Shown: positions 20,735-56,852 of the stretch, piece by piece
Numbering within the stretch: position 1 is the stretch's first letter
How the letters are laid out: each line of letters opens with the position of its first letter
Source of the DNA: an uncultured Candidatus Micrarchaeota archaeon
Lineage (GTDB): Archaea; Micrarchaeota; Micrarchaeia; Anstonellales; Bilamarchaeaceae
NCBI GenBank assembly: GCA_963714085.1
Contig: OY970229.1
Location: forward strand, 632,392 to 696,391
Direction: 5' to 3'
Length of the DNA stretch: 64,000 nt
Position numbers and translations under genes: made by a program
The notes under the pieces: generated by a model
Seen by the model: the letters and a program-made list of their open reading frames with translations, nothing else
Told to the model about the DNA's origin: nothing
The model's database searches: none

Positions 20735-20761
20735 GAGAAACGCGCTTCACAAGGTCTTTTT

Positions 20762-25454: not shown

Positions 25455-25514
25455 GGATTGCAATGGTACGAGAAAGCTTATTAAGTTGCGACGTGTATCG
25501 GTTTGGGAGAAGAC

Positions 25515-27026: not shown

Positions 27027-27050
27027 CCACATCGCGCGCAAACCGCCAAC

Positions 27051-27059
27051 TTTATAATT
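27051..27059 (+). promoter_or_regulatory. TATA-like box
   Basis: tttataatt about 26 nt upstream of ATG 27081. Confidence 0.45.
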
Positions 27060-27080
27060 CTTGAGAGTAAAAACAGGAAC

Positions 27081-29467: not shown

Positions 29468-30286
29468 TCAGGGCAGCCCTTCCGGGGGTTTGAGCAGCTC
29501 GTCCTGCTGCTTGAGCAGCTTCAGATACTCGTTCTGCAGGTCCGCGAACTCCTTCTCCTCCTCGTCGCTGAATATCCTGACATGGCGCACGGCGTTCTTC
29601 ACCTGTATCTTCGGCGAGATGTCCGCTATGAGCTTGAGGTTCTCGCTCAGCTTGTCCCGCACATCCGGCGTCACCCAGACCCTGCGGTTCTGCAGCTGGA
29701 CCGCTACCTCCGGATGAGTAGGCGCTGGGAATAGCGAGCCGTTACTCACCTCGGCGGGCATGCCCAGCCTTCCAAGGACCAGAGCGATCTCCCTGCCCAA
29801 AGGCTCCTCGCCTTTGAGTATAGGGATGGGGACATCGAGCTTGCCTTTGCGCACCTGCTCGGCCAGCGAGTCCCGGACGTCCTTCTGCAGCCTCGCGAGC
29901 AGGAGCGCGAGCTTGGCGATGCTCTCCCGCTCTTCGTAGTTCCGCTTGAGCAGCGCTCCGCGGCTGGAGAGGAGCTCGTAGCTGCCGCCCGCGCGCTTCG
30001 CCATGCAATCCGCCAGCTCCTTCGGCGGGCAGGAGGAGAGCAGCTGGTTGAGCCTCGCTATCTCCTGCTCGTTGGGAATTGCGATCTTCACCCCTGCGGC
30101 GTCCATCCTGGCCGAGAGCGCGTCGAGCTGACCCTGCACTGAGCGCAGGGCGGCCTCCGCCTGCTCCAGCGCGGCGGGTTCTGCCCCAGCGGACTTCCGG
30201 ACGTCCAGCTTGAACGACAGCTCAGCCCTGCTTTTGGCCAGTTCTAGGAACGTGACGAGGTCTTTTGATTCCACGCTTGGCGCCAT
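29468..30286 (-). CDS. Coiled-coil hypothetical protein (last gene of the long minus-strand run)
   Basis: 272 aa, Ala/Leu/Glu/Lys-rich heptad-like sequence. Its start overlaps the upstream gene's 3' end by about 65 nt, so the start is uncertain. Confidence 0.45.
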   Translation of the reverse strand: MAPSVESKDLVTFLELAKSRAELSFKLDVRKSAGAEPAALEQAEAALRSVQGQLDALSARMDAAGVKIAIPNEQEIARLNQLLSSCPPKELADCMAKRAGGSYELLSSRGALLKRNYEERESIAKLALLLARLQKDVRDSLAEQVRKGKLDVPIPILKGEEPLGREIALVLGRLGMPAEVSNGSLFPAPTHPEVAVQLQNRRVWVTPDVRDKLSENLKLIADISPKIQVKNAVRHVRIFSDEEEKEFADLQNEYLKLLKQQDELLKPPEGLP

Positions 30287-31970
30287 CGGATAACCCTTGG
30301 TCGTAGGCTTTCCTGACTAATATGTAGATTAGCACTATCAATATTAAAAACATTAACAACACGACGAGGATTGTCTGGAGGCCGGACGACGGCTGGGTTT
30401 GGGGCTGCGCCGCGGGGCGCGCCGATGATTCCATCCGCGCGAAGAGCGCGTCCAATCCCTCGGCGTAGCGCAGCGTGGTGAACGCCTCTGGCTCCAGGGA
30501 CGTGTTGTTCTGGGCCGCGAGCCATGCGGCGTGGGACTGGTAGACCGCGCCCCAGAGCGAGATCCGCTTCTCGGCCAGCATCGCCTGCACCTGCGATTTC
30601 ATGTCCGCGCTGCCCATGCCTACCATGTCGGAGTCCGCCTGGGAGGTCTCGATCACGTAGGTGCAGTCGAACAGCGCCGCGCCGTACCTGCCCTGGTCGA
30701 AGGACAGCCTGGCCGAATCCAGATGCTGCGCGAGGTCGGCATCCAGGTTGTCAAGGCCCTCGGCTTGGGCGAGCTCTGCGGACGCGAGCCCTTTCCATGC
30801 GGATTCGTTGAGCTCCGTGCCGTTCCTTCCAGCGGCGTCGCTGAGCAGGCCGGACACCGAGCACCAGGCGTAGGCGTACATGATCGCGTCGTAATCGCTG
30901 TACTTCTCATCGACCGTGTCCGCGCCAGAGATGTCCGTGGAGTTCAGCTGGTTCTCGGCCCAGGATCTCCGCGCGTCCGCGCCCACCAGCCATTGGAAGT
31001 TCTCGCTCGTCTTTGGGATGTCTGGCAGCGATGCTATGCACCTGGCCACGGATTCCTTCTCCGTCTGCAGGTCTGTGTCCTGGGTGAGCATGGCGCCCAC
31101 CGTGGAAGCCTCTATGTAATCCTCGAACGCCTCGTTGGCAGCGCTGAAGAGATAGCCTTTCCCCAGGATCTTCTCCTGCCTAGAGAGCTCCGAGGAGTAG
31201 TACTTCTTTATGGTGGCGGAATCGTTGTCCGATGACGGAAGGCCCTGGACGGTCCGGTTCTCCAGCGACATCATGCCGGCTGCCACGTTGTAGAAACCGG
31301 CCGCGGCGGATGGGTCGTACTGCGGCACGTCCGGGACCGGCTCGGACTCGCGTTCCAGTGATGGGGCGGGCAGGGACTGGTTGAAGAGCATGAATCCGAT
31401 TGCGTCGTCCATGTTCCCGGCCTCGACCACCCTGAGCCCGGTGGCCGCTTCGCTGTTCCTGAGCATGAGGGTGTCGAAGATGCTGTCGTTCGGAGTCATG
31501 AAGTACTTCGCGCCCGATGCCGCCACAGCCAGGGATTTCTCATAGAGCCCGCCGACCTGTCCGACGCCGCCTTCGGGGTCCACCGCGCCGGTCATCATGG
31601 CGTCCTGCCTCGGGGACATGCCGGTCGCGGCGCCATAGGTGAGGACGGCTATCGCGGCGCCCGCGCTGGGACCGTCCACGTAGCTGGCTGAACCCGAGCT
31701 GATGCTGACGATCGCATCGCAGCCGGACTCGTTGGCTTTCCCCAGCCCGTATTCCACGGCATCATGCACGGACTGCTGGGTTGTGGTGCTGGTCTGGGGA
31801 TAGACGGAAAGATACGCCCCTCCGCTCCCGGGCACGATTGTCACGGAGATGTTCACGGTATCCGAACCCGAGCCCACCACGGCCGGCACGCTCATACCCG
31901 CGCTGCCGTTGCACTGCGCAACGCAGAGGGCGCTCAGCAGGATGAGGAACAGAAAACATCGTGGGTCCAT
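30222..31970 (-). CDS. Exported, C-terminally membrane-anchored protein with a Lon (S16) protease-like domain
   Basis: Signal peptide MDPRCFLFLILLSALCVAQC. VDGPSAGAA (Lon catalytic Ser context) and VGGLYEKSLAVAASGAKYFMTP (catalytic Lys context). Long helical region. C-terminal TM ILVVLLMFLILIVLIYILV. Start set at the internal ATG (comp. 31968-31970). Confidence 0.7.
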   Translation of the reverse strand: MDPRCFLFLILLSALCVAQCNGSAGMSVPAVVGSGSDTVNISVTIVPGSGGAYLSVYPQTSTTTQQSVHDAVEYGLGKANESGCDAIVSISSGSASYVDGPSAGAAIAVLTYGAATGMSPRQDAMMTGAVDPEGGVGQVGGLYEKSLAVAASGAKYFMTPNDSIFDTLMLRNSEAATGLRVVEAGNMDDAIGFMLFNQSLPAPSLERESEPVPDVPQYDPSAAAGFYNVAAGMMSLENRTVQGLPSSDNDSATIKKYYSSELSRQEKILGKGYLFSAANEAFEDYIEASTVGAMLTQDTDLQTEKESVARCIASLPDIPKTSENFQWLVGADARRSWAENQLNSTDISGADTVDEKYSDYDAIMYAYAWCSVSGLLSDAAGRNGTELNESAWKGLASAELAQAEGLDNLDADLAQHLDSARLSFDQGRYGAALFDCTYVIETSQADSDMVGMGSADMKSQVQAMLAEKRISLWGAVYQSHAAWLAAQNNTSLEPEAFTTLRYAEGLDALFARMESSARPAAQPQTQPSSGLQTILVVLLMFLILIVLIYILVRKAYDQGLSDGAKRGIKRPRHVPRTGQKQG

Positions 31971-31978
31971 TGCGATCA

Positions 31979-32545
31979 CTATAGCCTTTTGGCTGCCAAT
32001 ATGCCCTTGTCCGTCTTGAAGAACTCGTATTCCTCCGCCAGATAGAGCTTGCCGAGCTGGGAGCCGGCCCCTTTTATCGAGTCCACTATGCTGCCGCTCG
32101 GCAGATCCTCGTAGAGGTAGGCCACTGCGTAGGACTTCCCCATGGACCTGGCGTCCTCCTCCCTCTGCCTGAGCAGGATGCGCCTTATGTCCCTGCCTTC
32201 GAAGGACAGCAGGACCGCGGGGTCTTCGAGATATATGGCGTTCGTCTGCTCCCCGCCCCGCACCGTGCGCCTCTCCGGGTCGTATACCGCGGGCCATGAG
32301 AGGCCCACGCCTATGAGCATGCGGTTGACGCAGCAGCCGAATGAGGTCTTGTAGTCTATTATGCCGCCGACCTCGGCAGGCGTGACGTCGAAGGCGCACT
32401 TCTGCATCACCTTGACGCATTCCTCCAGATCCTCGCGCGTGAGCCTCTTGACCTCGACCTGGTCCTCGTCGAGAAGGTAGAGGAATTTCTTCTTCTGGGC
32501 TTCCGGCTTCTTCTCCTCCTGCTTCAAGGCAAACGACTCGCTCAT
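31979..32545 (-). CDS. Hypothetical cytoplasmic protein (possibly GNAT-like fold)
   Basis: 188 aa with no TM. The weak resemblance to the acetyltransferase fold is an impression only. Confidence 0.45.
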   Translation of the reverse strand: MSESFALKQEEKKPEAQKKKFLYLLDEDQVEVKRLTREDLEECVKVMQKCAFDVTPAEVGGIIDYKTSFGCCVNRMLIGVGLSWPAVYDPERRTVRGGEQTNAIYLEDPAVLLSFEGRDIRRILLRQREEDARSMGKSYAVAYLYEDLPSGSIVDSIKGAGSQLGKLYLAEEYEFFKTDKGILAAKRL

Positions 32546-32563
32546 CTCAAATACCCTCCGGAC

Positions 32564-32902
32564 TCACATGAATTTCGTGTTGCATGCCGGGCACTGGGTG
32601 AGGAAGGCCTCGCTCCTGTACCCGCATATAGGGCATATGTAATAAGTCCTTTTAGCCCTTTCCAATTCGGCTTCGAAGCTGTATTTGCACTGGCCGCACC
32701 TCGGGGCGTCCAGCTCGTTGAGGAAACCGCAGTTCGGGCACTTGCGCCTGAACATGCTCTTTATGTGCGTGCCGCACTTCGGGCAGCGCTCCATGTCCAG
32801 CGTGACCGGGGCGCCGCAGTTCGGGCAGTTCTGCGACTGGCCCTTATGCGTGGAGCCGGACTGGCCGCGCAGCGCGTCCTTGAACATCTGGAGGATTCCC
32901 AT
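32564..32902 (-). CDS. Multi zinc-ribbon protein (six CxxC pairs)
   Basis: CPNCG...CPKCG...CPNCG...CGQCK...CPICG...CPACN in 112 aa. Confidence 0.7.
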   Translation of the reverse strand: MGILQMFKDALRGQSGSTHKGQSQNCPNCGAPVTLDMERCPKCGTHIKSMFRRKCPNCGFLNELDAPRCGQCKYSFEAELERAKRTYYICPICGYRSEAFLTQCPACNTKFM

Positions 32903-32910
32903 GCACCCAC

Positions 32911-35900
32911 CTATCCTGACCCGGGGGACGGCACGCAGTTTATGTCATAGTTCTTCACAGGCAGGCTGATGCCGCAGAACCCGCCCAGCTGGGTGAGCGA
33001 ATTGCCAGTCCCGATGCCGCAGTCCTGGTTCGCGTTTCCGGTCCTGGAGAACACCGCCGGGGCGGTCACGGACGTGTAGTACATCTGCTTGAAGTACGTG
33101 TAGTTGGCCCCGGTCGAATCCGTCAGGCAGCATTTGCCGGGCTTGCTCATGCCGGCCATCACGTCCTCGTAGGCGTCCGAGACCATGTTCACGGATTTCA
33201 CAAGCGGTTCTGACTCCTGGGTGCCGTTCCCGAAGCTCTCGGTGCAGTTGTATACCGTATTGGTCATGTTGCAGGGCGTGCATGGCTCGACCACGGTCTC
33301 ATCCGGGCATTTGTACTTGCCTACGTCCTCCAAGGGCACGCCCCCGGGCATCGTGCATTGGACGCCGTTGTCGCACGTCTTGCCGCACTCCCCCTGGGCC
33401 AGCTCCAGGGAGGTGCAGAGCGTGCAGTTCACGGACGGCACGGTAAACACCTGGACGAAAGTCGCGTACGGGTTGGTGCCGGCCATCCTGTTTATGGCGC
33501 TCTCGAGCGCGCAGAATTTCGTGGTTTTCATTCCGTATGGCAGTGCGATGCTGGTGCTAGTACCCGGCAGGGAAAACGACAGCACAGTGCTCACGAGGCT
33601 CTCCTTCTGCCCGGCCGTATTCGAGCTGTCGACGCGGACGGGCTGGTATATGAGGCCGATGATGCCGGCTTTCACCAGCTGGTCCTCGTTATTCACTATG
33701 CTGCTGAAGAGCGTCCCGTAGGTGTTGCCATTCCAGTATTGGTCGTCGGTCACGGTGAAATTGGTTATGATGACCGGCTTGCTATAGTTCAGCGCGGCCT
33801 CGCCATATGTCATCACGTCGTTGATCACGAATGAGGCCCTCGTGTCCGCTGTGATCGAACTGGCTGAGTATATCACCGTGTTCGCCAGCCGGGTTATGTA
33901 CCCCGCCAAGCCCAAAAATCCTCCTGCTGTGGCCGCCCCATTGCCGTAATTCGAGGTGTCGTAGTCGGTCACGATCATGTCGACGTTGACCTTCAGCCTC
34001 GGGTCGAAGCCGAATAGCTGGCTCAGGTCGTTATCGTAGGTCGATAACCCTACGCTGCTTCCTGGCACCCTAACCGCGGTCAGGCATCTGGGACAGGCCG
34101 CCCTGACCACCGCGGTCCTGTTCAATATCCTGTTCCTGGACAACGAAGCCGAGGAGGAATTGAACGTGTCCACGACCACCACTATCGCTCCGCTGTTGCC
34201 CAGGAGGCGCTGGAAATCGTACTCTTGGTACAGGCTCGAGTCCTGATGGCCCGATACTAAGCTGCTATCAACCCGTACTATCACATAGGGCGCGGTGAGG
34301 TTCCAGTTGCTGTTATCCGAGATGTCGATCACGGGCATTATGCCGGATTTGAGGTAGTTGCCCATGCGCTCCTTGATCAGGGTCGGGTCCTGGTCGGTCC
34401 TTGGAGCGCCTTCCGGAGTGACGTCGTAGGTGGTGTTCGTCACATAGACGCTGCCGCTGGTGCCCGAGTAGCCGTCTGTACTGCTGACGGATTCATAACC
34501 GGATGTCGACGTCACGTGATAGATGAACAGGTTGCTGTAATCTCCGATGTCGGTCACGTACGGGTCGCCGCAGGAGGTGGTAATGTTGCTCGGTGAGTTA
34601 GCCGTGATACTGCATATCGTGGTCGGGCTCACTCCCTGCCAGAGCTCCTGCTCCATCGATGGGATTGCCACCCTGTTGTCGCTGTTTGCGGATTTCGTGC
34701 CCGCTGTTATCTTCTGGTAAGCCAGGGTCGTGAGCGTGCACGGCTCGCACCAACCGAAGCTCTGGATCTGCGGCAGGGTCGAACCCGGCTCTATGTCGCA
34801 CCTGCCGATCTTCATGTTGCCCCCTGAATCCTTCGTGCCCACGAGCAGGTATATGGTGCTCGGGACCAGAGCCTGGTAAGCCATGGGTTGCCAGTCAAGT
34901 CCATTGCCCTGGCCCAGATTTATCTGCCTGATTGACGCCTTTTGGAGGTTGCAGAGGTTGTTTCCTGCGAAATAGGGCGAGGTTGTCTGCTGGTATATGT
35001 TGTCCTGGTCCCTGAAGAAGTTCAGCGCTGGCGAGTTCAGGATGTCGTACTCAGGGTCGCCATACTTGGGGTCGCCACCGCCGCCACCGCCGCCATCACC
35101 AGAATCGTCCCCGCTAGAAGAATAGTACGCTGGAATGGCCACGAATTTCTTGTACTCGGGTATCCACGGCATGGAGGCGAAGAACAGGTCATCGATGTCG
35201 ACTGAATTCGAGCGGTCGCAGTGCTCGTTCCACTCGTTAGCGTCATTCATATAGCCGTCCATGGTGTCGTTGTAGAGCGGCGCGAACGCGGTCAGAAGGC
35301 CTTGATAGGTGTCATAGAAGTCCTGCCCGGTGCCCGAGAGGTCGACTTTTATGTAGCTGGCGGTGGAAGGATAGCTGGTAACCGTATAATTGCACGGCGA
35401 GGGCGGCTCAGGATTGAATGTCGGGGCGTCTACCGGTGTGTCGGGGTTGGTTGTGTTGATGTAAGCTCTGCAATAAGCGAGGCATCTGCTTAATGTCGAA
35501 TAGGCGCCGTTGGCGTAATTAAACTCGTCAGCCGGGCACTTTCCTGACTTTCCTAGAGTTCCCGCGCAATCGTCCTGGCAGATGGTTACCATCTGGTTCG
35601 GGGTCACTGGCGAATTATAAATGGGTTGGCCCCCCGGCATAGCGTCGAACGAGTAGTTCAGCACTGTGCTCACGGACGCGAAGATGCAGCTCTTGGCGAA
35701 ATAGGTCTGCTCGAACTGCCCCGGGTCCGCCACCGCATAGCCGACTATGGTCTGGCCGTCGTATTGCACGTTCTGGTCGTCGAAGAACACGATCTGGCCC
35801 GCGGGCGGGTATGCGCCTGTCGTGTCCACATAGGAGTCCACCACATTGTTGGTCGAATCCCAGGTGACGCTGAAATCCGACGGAAGCAGGCTCACGGTCG

Positions 35901-37512
35901 CGGGGTCGCCGAACATCTCGTTCTGTATCGTATTGCCAAACTGATCCTGGTACGATCCAGTATTATAGAAGGAACCATCATTTGAGTCCCATAGCTGGAT
36001 GTAGGTGTTCGTACCATCGAAGTAACCGCCCCCAGATGTAAGAGGCGTAGTGAAGAAGTTGTTCCACATCCAGTCGAGCTGGCACTTGTCGTGCTTCTGC
36101 TCGCCGCTCGCCGCACAGCTCGGAATGCCAGCGATCGGTACGTTATCCTGGACATAAGGAGCGTTTTCGGTGTCGCTGCCTGCGTCCTGCAGCTGGTTCC
36201 TGTCGTAGTCCTCAGTGGCAAGCGTAAACTGGACCGGCCTGTAGGTTACGTTGGCGTACACGAAGCTGGCGGTACCGCCTGCGTTGCTCGCGTTGATGGT
36301 CGGGTAGCACACCACGACATTCTGGCCCGTCACCGTTTGGGTGCTCTTGCAGTCCGTGACCACGTAGCTCTGCGTGCCGGCCGCGTCCGTCACGACGTTC
36401 ACGCCCCTGCTGTAGAAATCGTTCGAGCATTCCCCGGAGAGGCACTCGTACGCGGATTTGTCGCACTCGAAGGGCGCGCGCCCCACCGTCGTGTTGTAGA
36501 ACTCCGGTATGTAAGCGGTGGAGAGCGCCTCCCTGTAGAATCCTTTATCCAGCTTCTCGTAGTAGTAAAGGGCAGATTTGTTCAGCCTGCTCGAGGAATT
36601 GGAATTGGGCCAGTCGACTACGCCGGTCGTCGGATGAAGCGTAACCGTCCAGGCATAACCGAGATAATCTATGTACTTGTAGGATTTGAAATCCGTGATG
36701 AAGCTCGGGTTCATGCTCAATGCCTTCGTGATGGTGACGTTCAAGAACGCGTTGGTTCCTGCGGTCGTGAGCGGCAGTATGCTCGCGGTCGGGGTTATGC
36801 TCGCTGGGGGCACCGGCGCCGCGTCGCTCGTGCATGATGTGTTCATCTTCGTCGGGTCGTAGGCGACGTAGGTGCCGGATGCGGTCCCGGGCTGCAGGTA
36901 ATTCATGTACCTGTCTATGGTCCCGGTGGGGTTGATCATGCAGTCCTTGTCCGATATGGGGAAGTAATAATGATAGTAGTCGTATTCGTCGAAATTCGCT
37001 CCTATGCCGAACCTGAAGTCCCCTACCGCGGATTTCGAGGTCTTCATGATCCTCTCGAAGCTCGAGTCCAGGGGAAGGAACCTGCACTGGCCGTTGTAGA
37101 GCGCCTGCGTTTTCGTGCTGGTGCTGCTGGTCGGCATCTCGTTCGCCGCCTCCTGCACCGAGGCCACCCCGGGCGCGACCTGGGGCGCATAGGCGAAATC
37201 GCCGCACGCCATGGCCAGGCAGTCCGGCTTTATGCACTCGGTCAGGTTGTCGTCCGTGCAGAATGGTATGGCAGAGTCGACCGAATCGATGGTGACGTTG
37301 CACATCTCGCTGGTCTGGTTGCAATAGATGGTCTGCGGGTACATGTCGATGAAGGCGTCGTTGGACATGTTGAACCAGTAGCATTTGCCGTCTTTGGTCG
37401 CGTTGTTCCTGACGCAGCAGCCCAGCTCCTTGGATTTGGTTATGCAGCCCGCGGAGAGCAGCATGGCGAAGGCGATCGCGAGCGAGATTGCGAGTGCGGT
37501 CCTGGGCTTCAT
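32911..37512 (-). CDS. Giant (1533 aa) exported Cys-rich, sequon-rich protein with a lipobox-like signal peptide
   Basis: N-terminus MKPRTALAISLAIAFAMLLSAGC. No other TM. Numerous Cys and N-x-S/T sites. Gly run SGDGGGGGGGDP. Start abuts the stop of the upstream membrane gene. Confidence 0.8.
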   Translation of the reverse strand: MKPRTALAISLAIAFAMLLSAGCITKSKELGCCVRNNATKDGKCYWFNMSNDAFIDMYPQTIYCNQTSEMCNVTIDSVDSAIPFCTDDNLTECIKPDCLAMACGDFAYAPQVAPGVASVQEAANEMPTSSTSTKTQALYNGQCRFLPLDSSFERIMKTSKSAVGDFRFGIGANFDEYDYYHYYFPISDKDCMINPTGTIDRYMNYLQPGTASGTYVAYDPTKMNTSCTSDAAPVPPASITPTASILPLTTAGTNAFLNVTITKALSMNPSFITDFKSYKYIDYLGYAWTVTLHPTTGVVDWPNSNSSSRLNKSALYYYEKLDKGFYREALSTAYIPEFYNTTVGRAPFECDKSAYECLSGECSNDFYSRGVNVVTDAAGTQSYVVTDCKSTQTVTGQNVVVCYPTINASNAGGTASFVYANVTYRPVQFTLATEDYDRNQLQDAGSDTENAPYVQDNVPIAGIPSCAASGEQKHDKCQLDWMWNNFFTTPLTSGGGYFDGTNTYIQLWDSNDGSFYNTGSYQDQFGNTIQNEMFGDPATVSLLPSDFSVTWDSTNNVVDSYVDTTGAYPPAGQIVFFDDQNVQYDGQTIVGYAVADPGQFEQTYFAKSCIFASVSTVLNYSFDAMPGGQPIYNSPVTPNQMVTICQDDCAGTLGKSGKCPADEFNYANGAYSTLSRCLAYCRAYINTTNPDTPVDAPTFNPEPPSPCNYTVTSYPSTASYIKVDLSGTGQDFYDTYQGLLTAFAPLYNDTMDGYMNDANEWNEHCDRSNSVDIDDLFFASMPWIPEYKKFVAIPAYYSSSGDDSGDGGGGGGGDPKYGDPEYDILNSPALNFFRDQDNIYQQTTSPYFAGNNLCNLQKASIRQINLGQGNGLDWQPMAYQALVPSTIYLLVGTKDSGGNMKIGRCDIEPGSTLPQIQSFGWCEPCTLTTLAYQKITAGTKSANSDNRVAIPSMEQELWQGVSPTTICSITANSPSNITTSCGDPYVTDIGDYSNLFIYHVTSTSGYESVSSTDGYSGTSGSVYVTNTTYDVTPEGAPRTDQDPTLIKERMGNYLKSGIMPVIDISDNSNWNLTAPYVIVRVDSSLVSGHQDSSLYQEYDFQRLLGNSGAIVVVVDTFNSSSASLSRNRILNRTAVVRAACPRCLTAVRVPGSSVGLSTYDNDLSQLFGFDPRLKVNVDMIVTDYDTSNYGNGAATAGGFLGLAGYITRLANTVIYSASSITADTRASFVINDVMTYGEAALNYSKPVIITNFTVTDDQYWNGNTYGTLFSSIVNNEDQLVKAGIIGLIYQPVRVDSSNTAGQKESLVSTVLSFSLPGTSTSIALPYGMKTTKFCALESAINRMAGTNPYATFVQVFTVPSVNCTLCTSLELAQGECGKTCDNGVQCTMPGGVPLEDVGKYKCPDETVVEPCTPCNMTNTVYNCTESFGNGTQESEPLVKSVNMVSDAYEDVMAGMSKPGKCCLTDSTGANYTYFKQMYYTSVTAPAVFSRTGNANQDCGIGTGNSLTQLGGFCGISLPVKNYDINCVPSPGSG

Positions 37513-38598
37513 TCATATCACCTTGGTCACCATTCTCATCAGCGTGTACGGGTCTCCGCCCAGCAGGGTCATCATGTAGCGCACGAAGGCGAGCGTGAGG
37601 AAGAGAGCGACGAGGGGCTGCAGTATGAGGCCTATGTAGGCCTGCGAGAGCTGGTCGCTGATACGGGCGAAGCTGAGCGACTGTGTCGCGGCGCCCGCGG
37701 TGTTGGTGGACACCATCGCCACCGCTGCGCTGAGCGTGGGATAGCAGAGCTGCTGCGCCAGGACCTGCGGGCTCCCCATGACCGGGGGCGAGTCCACCTT
37801 CACGAAGCCCGGGTCCAGAAGCACGAAGAAGACCGGGAACAGGAAGAAGAGCCCGACGCCGAGCGAGATGAACAGCGCGCCCGCGCCCCTCGTGAACTGG
37901 AACGAGCGGAGCAGTATGCCCAGCGGTATGAACATCGTCAGCATGGTGTTCTTCACGTAGAGCACCAGGAAGGACTGGGCGTCCAGCCCTATGAGCAGCA
38001 CCGTGGCGAGGTTGTTCGATATGCGTATGGACTCTGTCTCCTGGAACATGCTGCCTATCCAGTCGCCCCTGAACACTGTGATCCCGAAGAACGATACCTG
38101 CATGTTGAGCAGGTTGAAGTCCAAGGCGCTGCCGCTGACGATGGCGTCCTGGATCTTCGCTATGGCCATCGCCTTCTCCTGGAGCCTGCACTGCACTATC
38201 GCGAGCATATCCTGGAAGGATTGCGTTGCGACCTGGTCCGAGGTATCGGACGGGCCATTTATGTTTCCGGCCATGACCGGCATCTGCGTGCCGCCGCATG
38301 TGACGTAGGAGCTGCTGCTCCCCAGGACGCCGGCCACGAACGAGCCCGCGCCGGTGACGATGGTGGCGCCGCCGATGAGACACATCGCCATCAGGGCGGT
38401 TGCGATCGCCTGGAGTATCTCGGATTCGGCGTAATGCTCCAGCTCGGTCATTTTGAATGCCTTGGCGAACGCGATGAACAGGGCGTAGATGGTGACGGCT
38501 ATCAGCGTGGCGAGTATGCACATGGGGAGCCAGCTGGCCCAGCTCCCGAAGAAATCCATGGCGTCAAGCAGCGGCATAACAGGCAACATAGTCATCAC
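37513..38598 (-). CDS. Polytopic membrane protein, paralog F of a six-member tandem family
   Basis: 361 aa. Motifs HYAESEILQAIAT, GILLRSFQFTRGAGALFISLGVGLFFLFP, and C-terminal LLGGDPYTLMRMVTKVI. ATGA overlap with the upstream paralog. Confidence 0.8.
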   Translation of the reverse strand: MMTMLPVMPLLDAMDFFGSWASWLPMCILATLIAVTIYALFIAFAKAFKMTELEHYAESEILQAIATALMAMCLIGGATIVTGAGSFVAGVLGSSSSYVTCGGTQMPVMAGNINGPSDTSDQVATQSFQDMLAIVQCRLQEKAMAIAKIQDAIVSGSALDFNLLNMQVSFFGITVFRGDWIGSMFQETESIRISNNLATVLLIGLDAQSFLVLYVKNTMLTMFIPLGILLRSFQFTRGAGALFISLGVGLFFLFPVFFVLLDPGFVKVDSPPVMGSPQVLAQQLCYPTLSAAVAMVSTNTAGAATQSLSFARISDQLSQAYIGLILQPLVALFLTLAFVRYMMTLLGGDPYTLMRMVTKVI

Positions 38599-40748: not shown

Positions 40749-40757
40749 AATATCGCC

Positions 40758-42890
40758 TCAGAATATCCTTGACATGCCCGGGATCTCCACGTCCCCGCCA
40801 AGCATCTCGGAGAGGGACTTTATCACTATGAGCGTCGCTGCTATGTTCAGCAGCGGAAGCAGGTAGGCCGGCCCCATGAACTTGGCCACAGACTGTATCT
40901 CCTGCGCGCCGACCATGCCCTCGGCCCCTATCTGGGTATACGCGCCGGACGTCTTGGACGGCCCGCTGTCCGAAGGCGCGCACAGGTTCGTGCATTCGGT
41001 GTCTATCGGAGGGTTGTAGGTGTACGACTCCTGGCTGGTCGCGCACGTGTCGCATGAGCTGTAAGGCACCTGCACCCGATAATCCAGGGGGCAGCTCGTG
41101 GGGGAGCAGTCCTCGTGTATAACCCAAAAGTCGAAGTCAGTGAGGTATAGGGCCGGGAGGTTCGTGCCGATTATCCTCATATCCTCCGGGCAGGTGCTGC
41201 AATTGATGCTGTCCGTGGGGGCCTTCGCCTCTATGGCGGCCAGCGGCACCTTGCACGTGTCAGGGCATTGCTTGCACGAGACGCCGTCCTCGCTGTCATT
41301 GCTGCAGTATTCCGGGAGTATCTTCGACATGTCGGACGTGCCGTTGTTCATCCTGCACTCCTCCGGGCATCCGGTGCACAGGTCGTCGCACGAGCCGAAA
41401 TTGGGCATCACCCAGACGCAGCTCTGGTTCGCGTCCAGGCTCGCGATGCAGTCCTTGGGATACGTGTTGCAGCGGCTGGCGTTCGCGACGCTCGGGTCCA
41501 CGGAGGGCCTCCAACTCAGGTCGCTCACCTCCGCCACCCTGCAGTCGAACCTCGACTGCAGGCAGTTGCCTCCTGACTTGTTCCCGTTATTGGCGTTCAG
41601 ATCGCAGTCGCTCCTCAGCGGCGGGACTATCTTGCACTCGCTGGGGCATGCGGCCGCCTCGGTGGTGTTGATATGCACGATTATGCGGGTCACCTTGCAT
41701 TCCGCTGGAAGCGCCGCGCATGCGAACTGCTGGGTGTAGTTCGCGCACAGGTTGGAGCCTGCCGGGTAGGGAAGATCCCTGCAGGAGCGGTCGCAAGCAA
41801 TGTCACACTGACCGTTTCCTCCGCAGCTCGGATCGGTTATATGCACGGTCCAGTTCTCGCAGGAGGTCACGTTTACGCCGGAGTTGTTGAGCATGGAGTG
41901 GGTGTTGCCGAGTATGAGGTCCCTGACGGCGTCTGTCTGCGAGTCGTCGAACAGGGCGTATACCTGCGTGGTGGTGTTCAGGGCCACCGTCTCGCCGCCC
42001 TGCTTGTAAAAGGCGATCGGAGCCACGTAGCTGCATTCCGCTGGGCAGAAGCTGGGGAGCGTACTGCTCGCGTCCCCGGTTATCGTCATGTCGAGGCTCA
42101 TCCAGTCGAAGATGTACATGGCCGGGAAGAAGAACATCACTCCCACGGCGATTGCTATGAGGAGGCCGCCTACCTTGCGCGATATGAAGAACGACCGCGC
42201 CACTATGCCCAGCGCGAGAAGGAGCGGCGCGACCTTGAAGCATATCTCGCTCACGAAGAATACCTGGGAGTATAGCGAGGACAGCACGCCCTGGTAGTAC
42301 TCGAAGACCAGGCCGTACCTGTCGGCATCCAGTATGTAATTGGCCCAGAGCGACCATGTCACCCCGGCCTCCGCGCACCATACCGAGTAGCAGTAGATCC
42401 CGAAGCGCCTGTTCGCCCAAGCGGTGGCCACCAGGTCCTGGTGCAGCACGTTCTTCGCACCGTCCTGCGCGATTCCTATGTAGTCGCTCAGGTAGGCGTT
42501 CGCGGTCTTGTTCAGGCAGTTCTCGCCGGGGACGCAGTGGAGGCCTCCTATGCCGGAGGCGTTCACCATGGTCATGGTCGTGACATCCATGAGCGCGACT
42601 ACGCCTATGAGCGCGATCACGATGATCGCGTTCGCGAACACCTGGCCAAGCTCGCTCCTAGCCCAGGCCTGCATCTCGGGCAGCTCGAATCCTATACCCA
42701 CCATGTAGCCGATGCCCACGAGCACGGTGGATAACACGAGGGCGATCACCGAGATGGACTGCCAGTTGTTGAACAGCTCGAACGCGGAGCTGGACGGAGC
42801 CTGCTGCACGACCTGGGTGACGTTCTGGGCGAGCGCCGTGGCTGATAGCAGCAGAAGGACGATCGCCAGCGTGAGTCTGTGCTTCATCAT
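40758..42890 (-). CDS. Polytopic membrane protein, paralog C, with a ~360-aa Cys-rich ectodomain insertion
   Basis: 710 aa. Signal peptide MMKHRLTLAIVLLLLSATALA. Motifs AWARSELGQVFAN, GIVARSFFISRKVGGLLIAIAVGVMFFFP, and C-terminal MLGGDVEIPGMSRIF. The insertion carries CPAEC, LPAEC, CPSEC, CPEEC, CPDTC and CPED motifs. Confidence 0.8.
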   Translation of the reverse strand: MMKHRLTLAIVLLLLSATALAQNVTQVVQQAPSSSAFELFNNWQSISVIALVLSTVLVGIGYMVGIGFELPEMQAWARSELGQVFANAIIVIALIGVVALMDVTTMTMVNASGIGGLHCVPGENCLNKTANAYLSDYIGIAQDGAKNVLHQDLVATAWANRRFGIYCYSVWCAEAGVTWSLWANYILDADRYGLVFEYYQGVLSSLYSQVFFVSEICFKVAPLLLALGIVARSFFISRKVGGLLIAIAVGVMFFFPAMYIFDWMSLDMTITGDASSTLPSFCPAECSYVAPIAFYKQGGETVALNTTTQVYALFDDSQTDAVRDLILGNTHSMLNNSGVNVTSCENWTVHITDPSCGGNGQCDIACDRSCRDLPYPAGSNLCANYTQQFACAALPAECKVTRIIVHINTTEAAACPSECKIVPPLRSDCDLNANNGNKSGGNCLQSRFDCRVAEVSDLSWRPSVDPSVANASRCNTYPKDCIASLDANQSCVWVMPNFGSCDDLCTGCPEECRMNNGTSDMSKILPEYCSNDSEDGVSCKQCPDTCKVPLAAIEAKAPTDSINCSTCPEDMRIIGTNLPALYLTDFDFWVIHEDCSPTSCPLDYRVQVPYSSCDTCATSQESYTYNPPIDTECTNLCAPSDSGPSKTSGAYTQIGAEGMVGAQEIQSVAKFMGPAYLLPLLNIAATLIVIKSLSEMLGGDVEIPGMSRIF

Positions 42891-42891
42891 G

Positions 42892-43854
42892 TCACCCTAG
42901 TGCCCGCAATGCTTTGTTAGTTGCAGCGATGAAGGTTATGAACATTGCCATTGTGAGGTTCGGCAGGAAGAACGCCTGCGGTATCAGCCTCCCCACGTTC
43001 CAGAACCCGTAGGTGGCGCAGCCCGGGCCGAACACGAAATCGTTGACGCCGGCGGCGAACGTGCTGCAGTTCTGGCCCATTATGTCGTACATGGACAGGT
43101 TGAACGCGTACATGAAGGGCACGAGCACGTAGAGCCCCACAGCCACGGCGATGAGCATGTTGCCCATGTTGCGGAAGGGGGGTATCACCCTGAAGAGGAA
43201 CGCTATGGGCAGCACCCAGGTTATCACGTTGCTGTTTATGAATTCCAGGACCATCTTCTGCATGTTGATGCTGATGAGCGCGGGCAGCACGAAGCTGTTC
43301 ATCACCATGTCGTACTGCTGGGCATGCACCTTGAGGTAGCTGTCCGCCACCGCGGTGTACGCGTCCATCAAGGGAATCTGGACCGTGAATGCGAATGTGG
43401 ACTGCATCATGAGCTGTATGTTCTGGTTGATGTAGTACTGGGCGATGTTGTCCGCGTCGTCCTGCGCCATTTTGATGTAGCACATGGAGGTCGCGTTCAT
43501 GTTGCCTTGCACGTAGCACGAGAGGGTCCCCATCTTGGACATTGTGGAATCGAAGAAATAGTTCATGGTCTGGCAGGAGACGAGCAGTATGCCGGAGAAG
43601 CCGATGAGCAGCAGGATCGAGAAGAACAGATGGTAGAGCTCGTCCTTTGCCAGCACGGTGAGCCCGGAGTTGCTCGTGATGCTGCCGCCCGCGTACGCGA
43701 CCGCGATTATCATCACCGTCAGGCTGAATGCCGCGACTATCGCCGCCCCCTGGCCGTTCACCGGATCCAGTATCGCCTGGGTGGCATTGCCTATGCAGGA
43801 CGATGCGGAGAACACCGCGGGCATCAGGAGAAGGAGCAGCAGCAGGCGCCTCAT
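42892..43854 (-). CDS. Polytopic membrane protein, paralog B
   Basis: Start at MRRLLLLLLLMPAVFSASSC (comp. 43852-43854), overlapping the paralog A stop by 1 nt. Motifs LAKDELYHLFFS and AFLFRVIPPFRNMGNMLIAVAVGLYVLVP. Confidence 0.75.
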   Translation of the reverse strand: MRRLLLLLLLMPAVFSASSCIGNATQAILDPVNGQGAAIVAAFSLTVMIIAVAYAGGSITSNSGLTVLAKDELYHLFFSILLLIGFSGILLVSCQTMNYFFDSTMSKMGTLSCYVQGNMNATSMCYIKMAQDDADNIAQYYINQNIQLMMQSTFAFTVQIPLMDAYTAVADSYLKVHAQQYDMVMNSFVLPALISINMQKMVLEFINSNVITWVLPIAFLFRVIPPFRNMGNMLIAVAVGLYVLVPFMYAFNLSMYDIMGQNCSTFAAGVNDFVFGPGCATYGFWNVGRLIPQAFFLPNLTMAMFITFIAATNKALRALG

Positions 43855-45059
43855 CACACAAACCTCTGTATCCCGGCTAGATACCATTCGCCGCCGAGCG
43901 CAGTCGAGATGCTGCGCGCCCCGGACATGGTTATTATCGCTATCACTATGGTGTCGAGGTAGCTGAGCAGGATGGCGTTGTTAACGTTGCTCAGGAAGGT
44001 CACGAGCACTCCGAACGCCTGGTCAGTGTAGCCGACGCCCTCCCCGGCGAACGCGATCCAGGCCCCGAGGGCGGTGTCGTAGCTGACCTGCAGGCCTATC
44101 ATGAGGAGGGGGTATACGACGTACTGCACCAGGTCCTGGCATGGCAGGAAGAATCCGGCTGTCCAGGGGGTCAGAAGGAGCGGCAGGCACACCACTATGG
44201 AGAAGAGGAGGTCGTTGAGCGAGAGGAGCACGCGTATGGGCATGAGCTCGCAGAACGGCTGCGCCACGGTCATCGCCCACGTGCCCGGGTCCAGCTGGTC
44301 CAGCTGGGAGCTGGTCAGGTATGCCTTCGGATAGTCGATGACCTTGTTCGTCTCTCCGATCAGGATGACCGAGAACGGCACGAGCACCATGCCCGCGAGG
44401 CAGATGGCGACCAGCGTGTTCCCGGTTTTCCGCGTGAACGGGATCATGCGGAGGGAGAGCGAGACGGGCAGCAGCACCGCGGGCACGGCAGTGGCGCAGA
44501 ATTTGAGGATGAACAGCAGGCCCTCGTAGATGAAGATGCTGTTCGCGATGCCGCTGGTCGCTGAGGTGAGCGAGGAGAAAAGCGGGGCCACGCCGCCCAG
44601 CGGGGACGTCGAGTATGTCAGGCCCACTACGTACAGGGGGACGCTGATGTATGGGGAATACGTCGCAGCGGCCCTTATCTTGGTCGCGGCCCTTATGATG
44701 TCGTCGAACGACCGGTCCAACCCGGTCGTCTGGTTAGTCATGAGGTTGGTTATGACGTCCTGCGAAGCGGTCAGGTAATCTCCCTGACCGGTTATCGCCT
44801 TCGTCAGGCTCGTGGAGCCCACGAAGAACGCGTATATGAGCGCCGCGAGTATCACGCCGGCGATGAGCTCCCGGAGCTCGTTCTTGGACCAGGCCTCCAG
44901 CTGGGGCGATGAGACCGCGGTGGAGAGCATCATCATCAGTGCGAGGAATATGGCCACCAGCACGGCCGTGATCGGCACTATTGACGTGAAGTCGGGGCCG
45001 GATGCGAATGAGAGTCCGAGCACGATTAGCAATAGCAATAGGTGCCTGAACGGACGCAT
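43854..45059 (-). CDS. Polytopic membrane protein, paralog A (first gene of the operon)
   Basis: 401 aa. Signal peptide MRPFRHLLLLLIVLGLSFASG. Motifs AWSKNELRELIAG, LSLRMIPFTRKTGNTLVAICLAGMVLVP, and C-terminal ALGGEWYLAGIQRFV. Confidence 0.8.
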   Translation of the reverse strand: MRPFRHLLLLLIVLGLSFASGPDFTSIVPITAVLVAIFLALMMMLSTAVSSPQLEAWSKNELRELIAGVILAALIYAFFVGSTSLTKAITGQGDYLTASQDVITNLMTNQTTGLDRSFDDIIRAATKIRAAATYSPYISVPLYVVGLTYSTSPLGGVAPLFSSLTSATSGIANSIFIYEGLLFILKFCATAVPAVLLPVSLSLRMIPFTRKTGNTLVAICLAGMVLVPFSVILIGETNKVIDYPKAYLTSSQLDQLDPGTWAMTVAQPFCELMPIRVLLSLNDLLFSIVVCLPLLLTPWTAGFFLPCQDLVQYVVYPLLMIGLQVSYDTALGAWIAFAGEGVGYTDQAFGVLVTFLSNVNNAILLSYLDTIVIAIITMSGARSISTALGGEWYLAGIQRFV

Positions 45060-45079
45060 GCTAACATCTCCATGGTAAT

Positions 45080-45089
45080 GATTAAAATG
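45080..45089. promoter_or_regulatory. Single central AT-rich TATA-like element in the 50-bp divergent gap
   Basis: gattaaaatg is centred about 25 nt from both divergent start codons (comp. 45059 and 45110). Confidence 0.5.
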
Positions 45090-45109
45090 CTTGTTCCTGA
45101 TAGTTCATT

Positions 45110-48100: not shown

Positions 48101-48511
48101 GCCAGGAGCGATACCGAGGTGCGGATCCACGAGATAGGCGTATACGCGCAGGCAGAAGCCAAAAACACGGGCCCGACCGAGCCGCAGAAAGGGGTGGACA
48201 TGCTCAACTCCGCGATAGCGAGTCTCCAAAAGGAGGAACAAGAAAGGAAACCTCCCGAAGCTGCCGAAGCAACGGCCCGGCAGGCAGTCGTACCGGTCAG
48301 GACAGGCGGCGGGGGATCCGAACCGCCATCCAAACCCGAGACCCCGGCCGTCAGCGAACCCGTCAAACCAGAGGCGCCGGAAGAAACGAAGCGGGCCAAA
48401 CGTGAAGAGACAGTGACCCCCAGCGAACCCGTCAAAGTCGAGAAGCCCGAGGAGCGGGAAGCAGAGGAAACCACGAAGCCCAGGAAGAGGGGCGGCAAGA
48501 AGGAATCCTGA
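45110..48511 (+). CDS. 1133-aa single-pass membrane protein: Cys-rich ectodomain, one TM, then a long repeat-containing K/G/T/E-rich region
   Basis: Signal peptide MRTRLLFVALLVLVALMARPIMA. Cys-rich ~190 aa. PPPPP then TM PAICFPLLLIFAVLGGGLFLSG. Internal repeats (TGTTTVTLGSGETIKVSVAADKEGKFSAS / SGKTTIKLESGEKVTVIAADVASLDSGKFSIK). Acidic/basic tail. Confidence 0.8.
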   Translation: MRTRLLFVALLVLVALMARPIMADCTIPGTDCPACSETNGVPQAQMFLKVNSANESLVGTFFYENISDEANPRPLLVDAPVIVEMYNNTVDKTYRIYTDANGKAVFDFSAYAGACMNFKVMYCPFACTTGPSKSDCGFQNCLNYSGIPCSPGTCLASCTAGSVLDAPNIQAPQTPQCYILLPTMDTASYCPPPPPISSVPAICFPLLLIFAVLGGGLFLSGKNPFGGFDFTTPRTGKHIRYEAKGRGLGVSAPNVVTQKIHETGNKLATAGAKKLAGGAASLMAGGGKKGAAASASVAGHIEMKQAGGQRGGGMVTMAGGRTMATGSPAERFGGFGKVLGLVGYGIKGTVQAISGNTTGAKATFMKSSMISQSVGGIKSMVNTNRAVNKAMANAASANPIVYTPVAWAMLISTLKNAQDVNDGKKTQAGLGSIVSQLMNVKKGKAGAKTTIDNSKTVTVKENPADPNSKNVNKVVYEMTVGGKKVVATLDEASLRLGKFNGTVTVGNKTVNIEEGKVVSGWNELGGKDRNAVTDRVSISEVRQLVDGDKTAKKELEKTGTTTVTLGSGETIKVSVAADKEGKFSASAISDEKGTKGSFTITTSDERVTFVKDGKPTTPIGERLDMTEITGKLRSEGAMSDIAESGKTTIKLESGEKVTVIAADVASLDSGKFSIKTDDDKIVVVDTSKKDPNTGKPDPIVSVGTSITGASDLAATGKELGMPAITATLTAAVTMESRFSSNEYGGAVTVVTNPLGSPDDYTVIRPRDNDDLKGVAFEVVDGKVKTITDNSTGESLKADSTTGIKVGSGAPGYIPDKVAALGASVVQVQMAGQDLANDTMRLEKSLHDIRVTDSVSSANGGAPEEVRDYLSEHPEVHATIIQQAHEDAIETMARKDYPEKADEFRAANQQFEKDRQTMGSEAAYDKDLKPVTEKPFEEFAARSVREETSSQGARYAELVNKPEISEGLSYDEIAKMKADTKPYGAAMAAAAATELQSGARSDTEVRIHEIGVYAQAEAKNTGPTEPQKGVDMLNSAIASLQKEEQERKPPEAAEATARQAVVPVRTGGGGSEPPSKPETPAVSEPVKPEAPEETKRAKREETVTPSEPVKVEKPEEREAEETTKPRKRGGKKES

Positions 48512-48843
48512 TGCTCTCCCATGAAAGCGGCGCCAAAGGCACCAAACCCATCAAGCGCCTCGAGAACCTGCTCACGTTCGGCAACCTCTGGCTCTACATC
48601 CTCTCGCTAATAAAGAGGAAAGGCAGGGCTTACGCCTACATGCTCGACTCCGGCATCGAGAAGGAGTTCGCGTTCAAGCCTTCCAAGGTCATGGTCTACA
48701 TAGTGCTCTACAAACTCGAGAACGAGGGCCTCATAAAGTCCGAGTTCGAGGAGCGCAGGAAGTACTACAGCATGACGAAGAAGGGCGACGGCACCCTCAA
48801 GGCGGCGAGGCAGTATTTCAAGGTCCTTGCAAGCAAACTGTGA
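48511..48843 (+). CDS. PadR-family transcriptional regulator
   Basis: LWLYILSLIKRKGRAYAYML...MVYIVLYKLENEGLIKSEFEERRKYYSMTKKG: PadR wHTH pattern. The ATG overlaps the upstream TGA by 1 nt. Confidence 0.8.
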   Translation: MLSHESGAKGTKPIKRLENLLTFGNLWLYILSLIKRKGRAYAYMLDSGIEKEFAFKPSKVMVYIVLYKLENEGLIKSEFEERRKYYSMTKKGDGTLKAARQYFKVLASKL

Positions 48844-48849
48844 CCTAAG

Positions 48850-56731: not shown

Positions 56732-56852
56732 CCCGCCTTAGCTCAATGGTAGAGCGGTCGGCTGTAGCTTGGTCCGGCTCCTTTTTGGAGCTTCACTACT
56801 GTAATCAGCAGTAGATACCGACAGGTTGCTTGTTCAAGTCAGGCAGGCGGGA
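56732..56852 (+). tRNA. tRNA-Tyr (anticodon GTA, 56764-56766) with a 49-nt intron at the canonical 37/38 position
   Basis: Acceptor CCCGCCT/AGGCGGG. D arm GCTC-AATGGTA-GAGC. Anticodon stem GTCGG/CCGAC. T arm GCTTG-TTCAAGT-CAGGC. Discriminator A. Intron about 56768-56816. Confidence 0.8.

Follow-up and report, generated by a model that had tools for sequence, protein, structure and literature searches.

What does a tightly packed run of genes for membrane and exported proteins do in an archaeon of the Micrarchaeota? The question is raised by a locus at positions 29468-48843 of a 64,000-nt stretch of DNA (assembly GCA_963714085.1, contig OY970229.1, positions 632,392 to 696,391 of the forward strand; the whole stretch is called the window below) from an uncultured Candidatus Micrarchaeota archaeon of the Bilamarchaeaceae. 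A preliminary description, made from the sequence alone, had listed on the minus strand six paralogous polytopic membrane proteins (here M1-M6), a 1533-amino-acid (aa) exported Cys-rich protein (Big), a zinc-ribbon protein (Znr), a small cytoplasmic protein (U188), an exported Lon-S16-like protease (S16 peptidase) and a coiled-coil protein (CC272), and divergently a protein of 1133 aa (P1133) and a PadR regulator. It saw no recognisable system assignment and speculated about an adhesion, cell-cell contact or transfer apparatus.

We found that the locus is real and strongly conserved across Micrarchaeota and, as judged by sequence comparison, that its gene arrangement is not due to chance. The M array is probably the membrane channel of a cell-to-cell transfer machine. 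More specifically, we assign a probability of about 0.5 to the window holding the VirB6-analogous channel and envelope module of a phylum-wide apparatus that derives from, or resembles, a type IV secretion system (T4SS). That the M proteins work like VirB6 is our leading hypothesis; homology tests did not place them in the VirB6 family.

Six membrane paralogs in a fixed order

Every open reading frame (ORF) that the preliminary description had listed was recovered at its place in our ORF map, as were the 11-gene minus-strand run (45059 to 29468), in which all junctions are overlaps or gaps of ≤18 nt, and the 50-bp divergence at its head. The run begins with the M array:

43854..45059, minus strand: M1, 401 aa, signal peptide and five transmembrane (TM) segments; orthologs come first in the arrays of types A and B
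42892..43887, minus strand: M2, paralog of 320-331 aa, likely start ATG 43854 (ORF, family profile)
40758..42890, minus strand: M3, paralog of 710 aa (ORF, family profile)
39771..40748, minus strand: M4, paralog of 325 aa, for which an AlphaFold2 model was made
38595..39770, minus strand: M5, paralog of 391 aa (ORF, family profile)
37513..38598, minus strand: M6, paralog of 361 aa, GTG start, the sole M protein without a cleavable signal peptide

M1 and M2 overlap, with 1 nt common to the M1 stop and the likely M2 start at 43854. The following gaps measure 1 nt (M2/M3), 9 nt (M3/M4) and 0 nt (M4/M5), M5 and M6 overlap by 4 nt, and Big follows M6 with a gap of 0 nt. The proposed paralogy of the six proteins held up in local blastp comparisons (E 1e-12 to 1e-4) and in hhalign alignments between family profiles (probability 99.9-100%), and E61, R204, R210, G213, P228 and G389 are invariant across all six.

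Hydropathy predicts five TM helices for each protein, with the N-terminus outside and the C-terminus inside. In M3, TM4 and TM5 are separated by an additional extracellular insert of ∼400 aa that contains 34 Cys and 12 N-x-S/T sequons. In the M4 model (predicted local distance difference test (pLDDT) 85, predicted template modelling score 0.77), a signal peptide precedes five long TM helices, with an extracellular helical loop and a disulfide-capable beta hairpin between TM2 and TM3, and three Arg in the TM3-TM4 loop. In the predicted topology, the residues common to the six paralogs all lie on the cytoplasmic side, in an AKxE loop, an RxFxFxRxxG loop and a C-terminal LGGE tail.

M1-M6 match nothing in Pfam or NCBIfam, a search of the M4 family profile against the PDB returned nothing meaningful, and no family recurred when 113 M proteins, drawn from all locus types, were compared with Pfam. 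M4 has 144 close homologs; among the best 120, all those named by their source are called hypothetical protein, and the source names point to Micrarchaeota, Bilamarchaeum or similar metagenome-assembled genomes (MAGs). A HMMER search over 1.84 billion representative proteins (clusters at 50% identity) collected 2,903 family members at E ≤1e-3. The M proteins thus form a large family outside Pfam coverage. No match to M4 was found by tblastn in 72,556 plasmids, and there is therefore no sign of a mobile-element origin.

To place the locus among its relatives, we used one genome per GTDB species, which returned 64 loci. Of these, 62 are labelled Micrarchaeota or plain 'archaeon', and the remaining two 'Candidatus ainarchaeum sp.', probably Iainarchaeum. 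When the window proteins were mapped onto the loci, M1-M6 stood in the same order in all 64, and hidden Markov models (HMMs) built from type A loci only placed positions 2-6 of the most distant loci as M2-M6, in order. Both the six-fold duplication and the order therefore go back to the ancestor of the sampled phylum. Chance adjacency, which the preliminary description had left to a neighbourhood comparison, is contradicted by dozens of Micrarchaeota loci that retain the same order at an identity of 40-50%. A fixed order is what six non-equivalent positions in one assembly would predict, and phylum-wide conservation of six positionally orthologous paralogs fits the multi-subunit envelope assembly proposed earlier.

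The partners of the array differ between locus types. In type A (the window and L001-L042), PadR and P1133 are divergent from M1-M6, Big, Znr, U188, in places an antisense PP-loop ATPase, the S16 peptidase and CC272, and the flanks are formed by ScpB/Fap7 and ELP3. In type B (L047-50, L055, L057), U188, Znr and a Cys-rich 2-TM protein are divergent from M1-M6, Big and P1133. The gene upstream of type B loci encodes a Cdc48-like double AAA+ ATPase, which we considered and set aside as probably unrelated to the system. Directly after M6, loci of types A, B and D encode a giant Cys-rich exported protein, as is seen in L062, L063 and L066 of other lineages.

Six tandem paralogs in a conserved order, with long extracellular helices, could also suggest a heterohexameric uptake conduit for lipids or small molecules of the host. 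Such a conduit would be like mycobacterial Mce1A-F in logic, not in ancestry: the likeness, an analogy only, is one of six tandem paralogs whose gene order mirrors ring positions. Archaea of the DPANN group (Diapherotrites, Parvarchaeota, Aenigmarchaeota, Nanoarchaeota, Nanohaloarchaeota) commonly lack lipid biosynthesis. Micrarchaeota genomes are moreover reduced and thought to be host-dependent (PMC8975820), as an uptake function might lead one to expect. The M proteins are polytopic, however, whereas Mce subunits are single-pass, no MCE domain, YrbE-type permease or ABC ATPase was detected in the locus with Pfam and NCBIfam, and no ATPase has been linked to the array other than one of the VirB4/HerA class, which translocates DNA or protein. 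We consider an uptake conduit highly improbable.

Gene context of the array and the VirB6 question

A link to a known kind of machine came from the eight type C loci (L052, L053, L056, L058, L059, L060, L061, L067), one of them (L059) from Ca. Fermentimicrarchaeum limneticum, whose genome is complete. Here, a PMT_2 glycosyltransferase gene is followed by two or three genes for small membrane proteins (the pilin genes), M1-M6, two paralogous 2-TM proteins (∼270 aa) and a 512-aa ATPase, with proteins of 99, 121, 260 and ∼810 aa encoded 3′ of the ATPase. From the pilin genes onward, all genes lie on one strand, and in Fermentimicrarchaeum 0-86 nt separate neighbouring genes in the part that begins with the second pilin gene and ends with the ATPase. 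No Big-family gene directly follows M6 in type C loci.

The small type C proteins consist of a signal peptide, a helix, a basic loop (GAETKAKAQ) and a second helix. All 15 match Pfam T4SS_pilin (best E 2.4e-4) and three of the 15 also match TrbC/VirB2 (best E 1e-4), all these matches, like those of the Gugararchaeum locus L072 described below, scoring below the Pfam gathering thresholds. A search of the pilin family profile against the PDB gave nothing meaningful. The ATPase matches AAA_10 (3.6e-13), DUF87 and P-loop_TraG (6e-10) in Pfam, and its residues 59-335 align to the VirB4-like structure 4ag5 in the PDB (2e-10). Its best NCBIfam models are CedD (5e-19), CedB (5e-18) and the VirB4-like CD1110 (3e-15), with scores far under the CedB/CedD equivalog cut-offs (65-68 bits vs 600-700). 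Its plasmid matches, 22-27% identical, are genes of the TraC/VirB4/TraG type. The HAS barrel found in canonical HerA is missing from the ATPase, and its conservation is unusually high, with 61-67% identity across >1170 Micrarchaeota proteins. In one type C locus, the VirB4/Ced-like ATPase (L067:12618-15761) contains an intein carrying a LAGLIDADG endonuclease; an eRF1 gene elsewhere (L073:1-264) also has an intein.

In Anstonellales-type and other genomes, the ATPase stands in a module of its own, composed of genes for a 2-TM protein, the ATPase and proteins of ∼100, ∼130, ∼255 and ∼850 aa, which travel together in L069, L070, L072 and L073 and adjoin glycosyltransferase genes. Gugararchaeum (L072) has pilin genes 2 kb upstream of this module. 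Pilin and ATPase genes are thus paired in two arrangements, of which the type C one has the M array precisely between the two. The earlier statement that no system could be assigned is hereby overturned for gene context only, via the Fermentimicrarchaeum-type loci.

Two further observations concern the stand-alone module. Homologs of the S16 peptidase stand 4-8 kb from it in two loci: an exported one at L069:3919-5688 (-), with 27% identity (E 1e-48), near the separate ATPase module, and one at L073:331-2064 (-), identified solely by its precomputed Lon_C Pfam domain. Their proximity could be another connection between the modules, or no more than local synteny. In MAG LFW-29 (L065), an M-like gene (L065:50-943, plus strand) lies 4.7 kb from a TraG-type gene (L065:5650-8961, minus strand), whose product of 1103 aa has two TM segments and a TraG P-loop domain (4.7e-26).

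Do the M proteins themselves resemble VirB6? VirB6 of A. tumefaciens has its N-terminus outside, five TM helices, a large loop after TM2 and its C-terminus inside. The predicted topology of M1-M6 follows this VirB6/CedA/CedE pattern in all four respects, and CedE is described as having five TM helices and as superposable on VirB6 (PMC11868833). In addition, the pilin profile was aligned by hhalign with the N-terminal hairpins of M3 (probability 88.8%) and M2 (24.6%), compared to ≤1.7% for control TM families, which echoes the reported relationship of CedA to CedA1 and of VirB6 to VirB2 (PMC9905601).

Several results weigh against a T4SS-type assignment. The pilin similarity is strong for one paralog family only, with type C M proteins reaching ≤11.5%. 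Pfam TrbL/VirB6 (PF04610) matched none of the 113 M proteins at E up to 1, nor any of the six in the window. All M families, superfamily alignments and type C families gave 0.1-2.4% in hhalign against a profile of TrwI from R388, which was built from 37 sequences and, being narrow (≥50% identity), has limited sensitivity. Foldseek matched the M4 model mainly to generic long-helix structures of the PDB (aspartase, designed bundles); the sole topical match, TrwI/VirB6 (7o3v_G), ranked ninth (E 0.14, probability 0.63, root-mean-square deviation 11.9) with a TM-score of 0.26/0.29, which is not significant. Within the window, neither a VirB4-like ATPase (tblastn with the relatives' ATPase) nor a pilin (HMM of the relatives' pilins, ORFs ≥50 aa) was detected, in agreement with what the preliminary description says of the locus; these searches covered the 64 kb of the window. 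The operon link is confined to one clade and one more distant genome (L060), and may thus reflect few evolutionary events. Finally, window-type accessory genes and ATPase-module genes have no detectable homology. Profile and structure searches hence gave no confident T4SS or Ced placement for the window proteins themselves, and the transfer apparatus that had been speculated upon gains real support only from the type C operon context, with its VirB2-like pilins and VirB4/CedB/CedD-like ATPase.

A HerA gene at 25503-27026 was considered as the missing ATPase and rejected: it has the canonical HAS barrel and DUF87, lies in a housekeeping context beside a tRNA endonuclease gene, and its similarity to the relatives' ATPase is confined to 138 residues. 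It is followed by a gene for an exported Ig/CARDB-like protein with a C-terminal anchor; the pair (25503-27908, plus strand) stands 1.6-2.4 kb from the end of the locus, and we found no evidence that it belongs to the system.

The negative comparisons would also be expected if M1-M6 formed a stand-alone, phylum-specific envelope complex outside the T4SS, serving adhesion, host contact or envelope architecture, with its adjacency to pilin and ATPase genes an accident of one clade. Lack of profile or fold similarity to VirB6 and the unrelated accessory genes of the two modules are consistent with this, as are types A, B and D, where the array has its own partners (Big, P1133, Znr, the GNAT-like U188) and no ATPase or pilin nearby. 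An accident is harder to reconcile with eight genomes in which the array sits between the pilin and the 2-TM/ATPase genes, on one strand and with 0-86-nt gaps. Moreover, the residues retained by all paralogs face the cytoplasm, suggesting a common cytoplasmic partner that a pure surface structure would not need. We regard such a complex as plausible but on the whole doubtful.

The closest functional parallels to a transfer machine in archaea are Ced and Ted, T4SS-derived DNA-import machines of Sulfolobales and Thermoproteales that consist of a channel (CedA/CedE or TedA), a pilin (CedA1 or TedC) and an ATPase (CedB/CedD or TedB) (PMC9905601, PMC11868833). Like these, the M system is chromosomal rather than plasmid-borne and conserved within its lineage. 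Relaxase and coupling protein are absent from Ced/Ted, and neither was seen in the M loci examined (no Pfam or NCBIfam match among the locus proteins and the scanned flanking genes, some small window ORFs being unscanned). Type C loci also share the small VirB2-like pilin with a cleaved signal peptide, the polytopic membrane proteins and the ATPase of the VirB4/HerA clade. In both systems, a five-TM protein, the channel in Ced/Ted and the putative channel here, occurs as paralogs, CedA and CedE having been proposed to form a joint channel. In contrast, there are six M paralogs in fixed order instead of one or two, they have no detectable sequence similarity to VirB6, and NCBIfam returned no CedA/TedA-type match for the six window proteins. 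The window locus further differs by adding a Cys-rich lipoprotein, P1133, a triple zinc ribbon, a GNAT-like protein and an exported S16 peptidase, and in the window's lineage the ATPase would be at a separate locus.

With bacterial VirB6/TrbL (TrwI of R388, PDB 7o3v), the M proteins share the predicted topology and, in type C, an operon with pilin and VirB4-type ATPase genes. Several VirB6 copies per system have precedent, for example in Bartonella Trw, where single chromosomes encode two TrwI-like proteins (e.g. P0280, P0316). VirB6 genes are also amplified in the rvh system of Rickettsiales. The difference lies in the comparisons above (no TrbL match, hhalign ≤2.4%, Foldseek E 0.14). A second bacterial parallel is the chromosomal T4SS of Patescibacteria (Candidate Phyla Radiation), which is relaxase-less, centred on VirB4 and present in almost the whole phylum, with VirB6 homologs often too divergent to detect; it was reported to be essential for epibiotic growth (PMC12102498). 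Here, too, an ultra-small, host-dependent lineage has a chromosomal VirB4-centred system. Unlike the M system, that of Patescibacteria is bacterial, of the MPF-FATA (mating-pair formation) type with recognisable VirB6/PrgH, VirB3/PrgI and VirB8, and lacks a six-paralog array and Big-like or P1133-like partners. VirB4-like domains have been described in nanohaloarchaeal giant proteins (PMC10266531). A full-text literature search retrieved nothing on a six-paralog array or a T4SS-like system in Micrarchaeota.

Accessory proteins and neighbouring genes

The remaining elements of the window locus are:

32911..37512, minus strand: Big, 1533 aa, exported, signal peptide with lipobox-like LLSAGC
32564..32902, minus strand: Znr, triple zinc ribbon, 112 aa, cytoplasmic
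31979..32545, minus strand: U188, cytoplasmic GNAT-like protein, weak Acetyltransf_1 matches
30222..31970, minus strand: S16 (Lon_C) peptidase, 582 aa, exported, C-terminal anchor (Pfam Lon_C)
29468..30286, minus strand: CC272, 272 aa, soluble, no TM predicted, start overlapping the peptidase gene by 65 nt
45060..45109, no strand: divergent spacer between M1 and P1133, 50 bp
45081-45088: AT-rich TATA-like element ATTTTAAT, the only one in the spacer, ∼22 nt from both start codons
45110..48511, plus strand: P1133, 1133 aa, single-pass type I membrane protein (ORF)
48511..48843, plus strand: PadR-family regulator, 110 aa (Pfam PadR 1.7e-9, 38 bits vs a cut-off of 27)

Pfam and NCBIfam scans covered all 13 locus proteins, and only the zinc ribbon, Lon_C and PadR matched families. 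No PilB/FlaI ATPase, PilC/FlaJ platform or class III signal-peptide pilin was matched in the locus.

Big has the signal peptide and the Cys richness ascribed to it: its 51 Cys include ∼27 that are invariant in the family, as is G22-C23 of the lipobox-like motif, and it contains 28 N-x-S/T sequons. Pfam matched none of 36 family members, and a PDB profile search was empty. We rejected Big as the Micrarchaeota S-layer protein, as it has no PF05123 and 51 Cys; that protein carries a PF05123 domain and has almost no sulfur-containing residues (bioRxiv 10.1101/2021.04.28.441871). 

That a giant Cys-rich exported protein directly follows M6 in nearly all non-type-C loci raises the question of whether the locus is a dedicated export and maturation machine for Big. 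The M proteins would then serve to insert, fold, glycosylate or anchor this protein, and the S16 peptidase to process it. The lipobox, Cys and sequons of Big, the exported peptidase in the operon and the GT-C/PMT_2 glycosyltransferase genes adjoining related modules are all compatible with such a role. Six positionally fixed paralogs, however, far exceed the needs of any known single-substrate chaperone or insertase, and type C keeps all six where no Big-family gene directly follows. Pfam and NCBIfam scans also gave no similarity to YidC, Sec, Dsb or oligosaccharyltransferase families. A Big-specific machine appears improbable to us, and both it and the Mce-like ring are less likely than the non-T4SS surface complex.

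The six CxxC motifs of Znr correspond to a Pfam DZR match (4e-16), confirming a zinc-ribbon protein, and the gene stays linked to the M array in type A and type B loci. No locus-specific protein is better conserved than U188, which is 55-66% identical among most type A loci. It is cytoplasmic, as had been noted, but need not be called unknown. Acetyltransf_1 (Pfam) matched 14 of 35 family members, all below the cut-off (best E 0.0034), and the consensus EGRGIRRILL resembles GNAT motif A. The family profile had no match in the PDB, and a single-sequence AlphaFold2 model was discarded (pLDDT 38). Going by these motif-level similarities, U188 is probably a GNAT-fold protein. An antisense gene for a PP-loop ATPase (Asn_synthase/NAD_synthase/QueC-like) lies between U188 and the S16 peptidase in two type A loci (L001:17803-18498 and L003:18001-18804, both minus strand); the window has merely an 8-nt gap at this position.

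The peptidase, too, agrees with its earlier description as an exported, anchored Lon-S16-like protease. It matches Lon_C (8e-10, 39.1 bits vs a gathering cut-off of 21.1), keeps Ser100 (GPSAG) and Lys145 (YEK) of the Ser-Lys dyad, and has an N-terminal signal peptide, a long C-terminal helical region and a C-terminal TM segment. No AAA+ domain was found in Pfam and NCBIfam scans. An ATP-dependent LonA or LonB was rejected: matches to Lon equivalogs span the peptidase part only (28-36 bits vs cut-offs >500). Exported S16 peptidases of the SepM/YlbL type share the Lon_C fold, the intact dyad, the lack of AAA+ and the location outside the membrane, whereas the window peptidase has no detected PDZ, carries the C-terminal helical region and anchor, and scores weakly with the SepM model (24.9 bits vs a cut-off of 200). 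CC272, without a Pfam match, was found in 21 type A loci.

P1133 has no match in Pfam or NCBIfam. Its ectodomain (about residues 30-150) is conserved and contains Cys, residues 181-240 hold a CPPPPP motif and the TM segment, and the cytoplasmic tail of ∼890 aa is G/A/K/T-rich and poorly conserved. Together with Big, the M3 insert and the peptidase, the ectodomain accounts for the extracellular portions of the system that are rich in Cys and glycosylation sites. The gene is divergent in type A and lies downstream of Big in type B loci and in L043.

Downstream of M6/Big, the junctions of the minus-strand run are gaps of 8 nt (Big/Znr), 18 nt (Znr/U188) and 8 nt (U188/peptidase) and the 65-nt overlap of the peptidase gene with CC272, which is kept in relatives too. 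The peptidase ORF starts at 32420, but the true start is ATG 31970 (MDPRC...). In the divergent spacer, ATTTTAAT is a putative promoter and, by its position between the two start codons, probably the shared element from which transcription in both directions starts. In relatives, GTTTAAAT is kept ∼25 nt upstream of M1, and a second element for the opposite direction, AAATTTATAAAT, is often present.

On the plus strand, P1133 and PadR overlap by 1 nt (TGATG), the coupling that the preliminary description had recognised. The run continues with a 6-nt gap to a Fap7-like kinase gene and a 4-nt overlap to ScpB (48511-49946), and the transcription unit thus probably reaches past the right boundary drawn earlier. 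In L043, P1133 is relocated, yet PadR, Fap7 and ScpB are still together. PadR is therefore probably not a dedicated component of the system, and from this gene order may be part of a Fap7/ScpB housekeeping operon.

Elsewhere in the window, full-length Rfam tRNA matches at 4918-5044 and 56732-56852 (both plus strand, 127 and 121 nt) were missed by ARAGORN; these two tRNAs probably carry introns of ∼50 nt. A tRNA-intron endonuclease gene is located at 24314-24814. A metal-handling pair at 11162-14945 (plus strand) comprises an HMA + DsbD_2 + cupredoxin fusion beside an HMA-bearing P-type ATPase, and at 19676-22222 (plus strand) two radical-SAM genes stand side by side, the second of them also encoding a B12-binding domain. 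Beside a stretch of lower G+C content, a TnpB/IS605 OrfB-type gene (51435-52769, minus strand; OrfB_IS605 and Cas12f-like TNB) adjoins the aspartate carbamoyltransferase gene. Three sizeable ORFs (57037-58248, plus strand; 58998-59918 and 59967-61439, minus strand) have no Pfam match.

A possible transfer apparatus and its meaning

How could such a system work? As ancient paralogs, M1-M6 would build a channel or platform in the form of a hetero-oligomer, probably a heterohexamer. Their identical cytoplasmic motifs could dock this ring to a hexameric VirB4/CedB/CedD-like ATPase, which would be encoded elsewhere in the window's lineage and in the same operon in Fermentimicrarchaeum-type genomes. 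Big, as a lipid-anchored, disulfide-rich glycoprotein, may form with the ectodomains of M3 and P1133 an extracellular part that spans from the membrane to the S-layer. The exported S16 peptidase would mature the exported parts, and the zinc-ribbon and GNAT-like proteins would act on the cytoplasmic side. The cargo would probably be macromolecules passing between the symbiont and another cell, for which Ced/Ted DNA import offers a precedent.

In a related but unlikely alternative, M1-M6 would combine with Big and P1133 into a six-fold port in the envelope, which would serve the symbiont as its docking and translocation organelle and take up host macromolecules. It would be phylum-defining and built from a family for which no relatives can be detected, and its coupling to T4SS parts would be loose. 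Cryo-electron tomography of Microcaldus ARM-1 revealed an unidentified barrel-shaped complex of ∼21 nm beneath the symbiont S-layer, where host nanotubes enter (PMC11329633). This barrel would be a candidate for the port, if ARM-1 carries the locus.

DPANN archaea depend on physical contact with their hosts, and the machines at that interface are almost entirely unknown. The locus is a concrete, phylum-conserved candidate for such a machine, combining an unannotated protein family and a six-fold architecture with a context tie to a highly conserved VirB4/Ced-like ATPase, and the six-fold paralogy gives clear structural predictions. If the assignment to a T4SS-like apparatus is true, Micrarchaeota would resemble Patescibacteria, nearly all of which have a chromosomal T4SS, and transfer of the Ced/Ted type would extend from Thermoproteota to DPANN.

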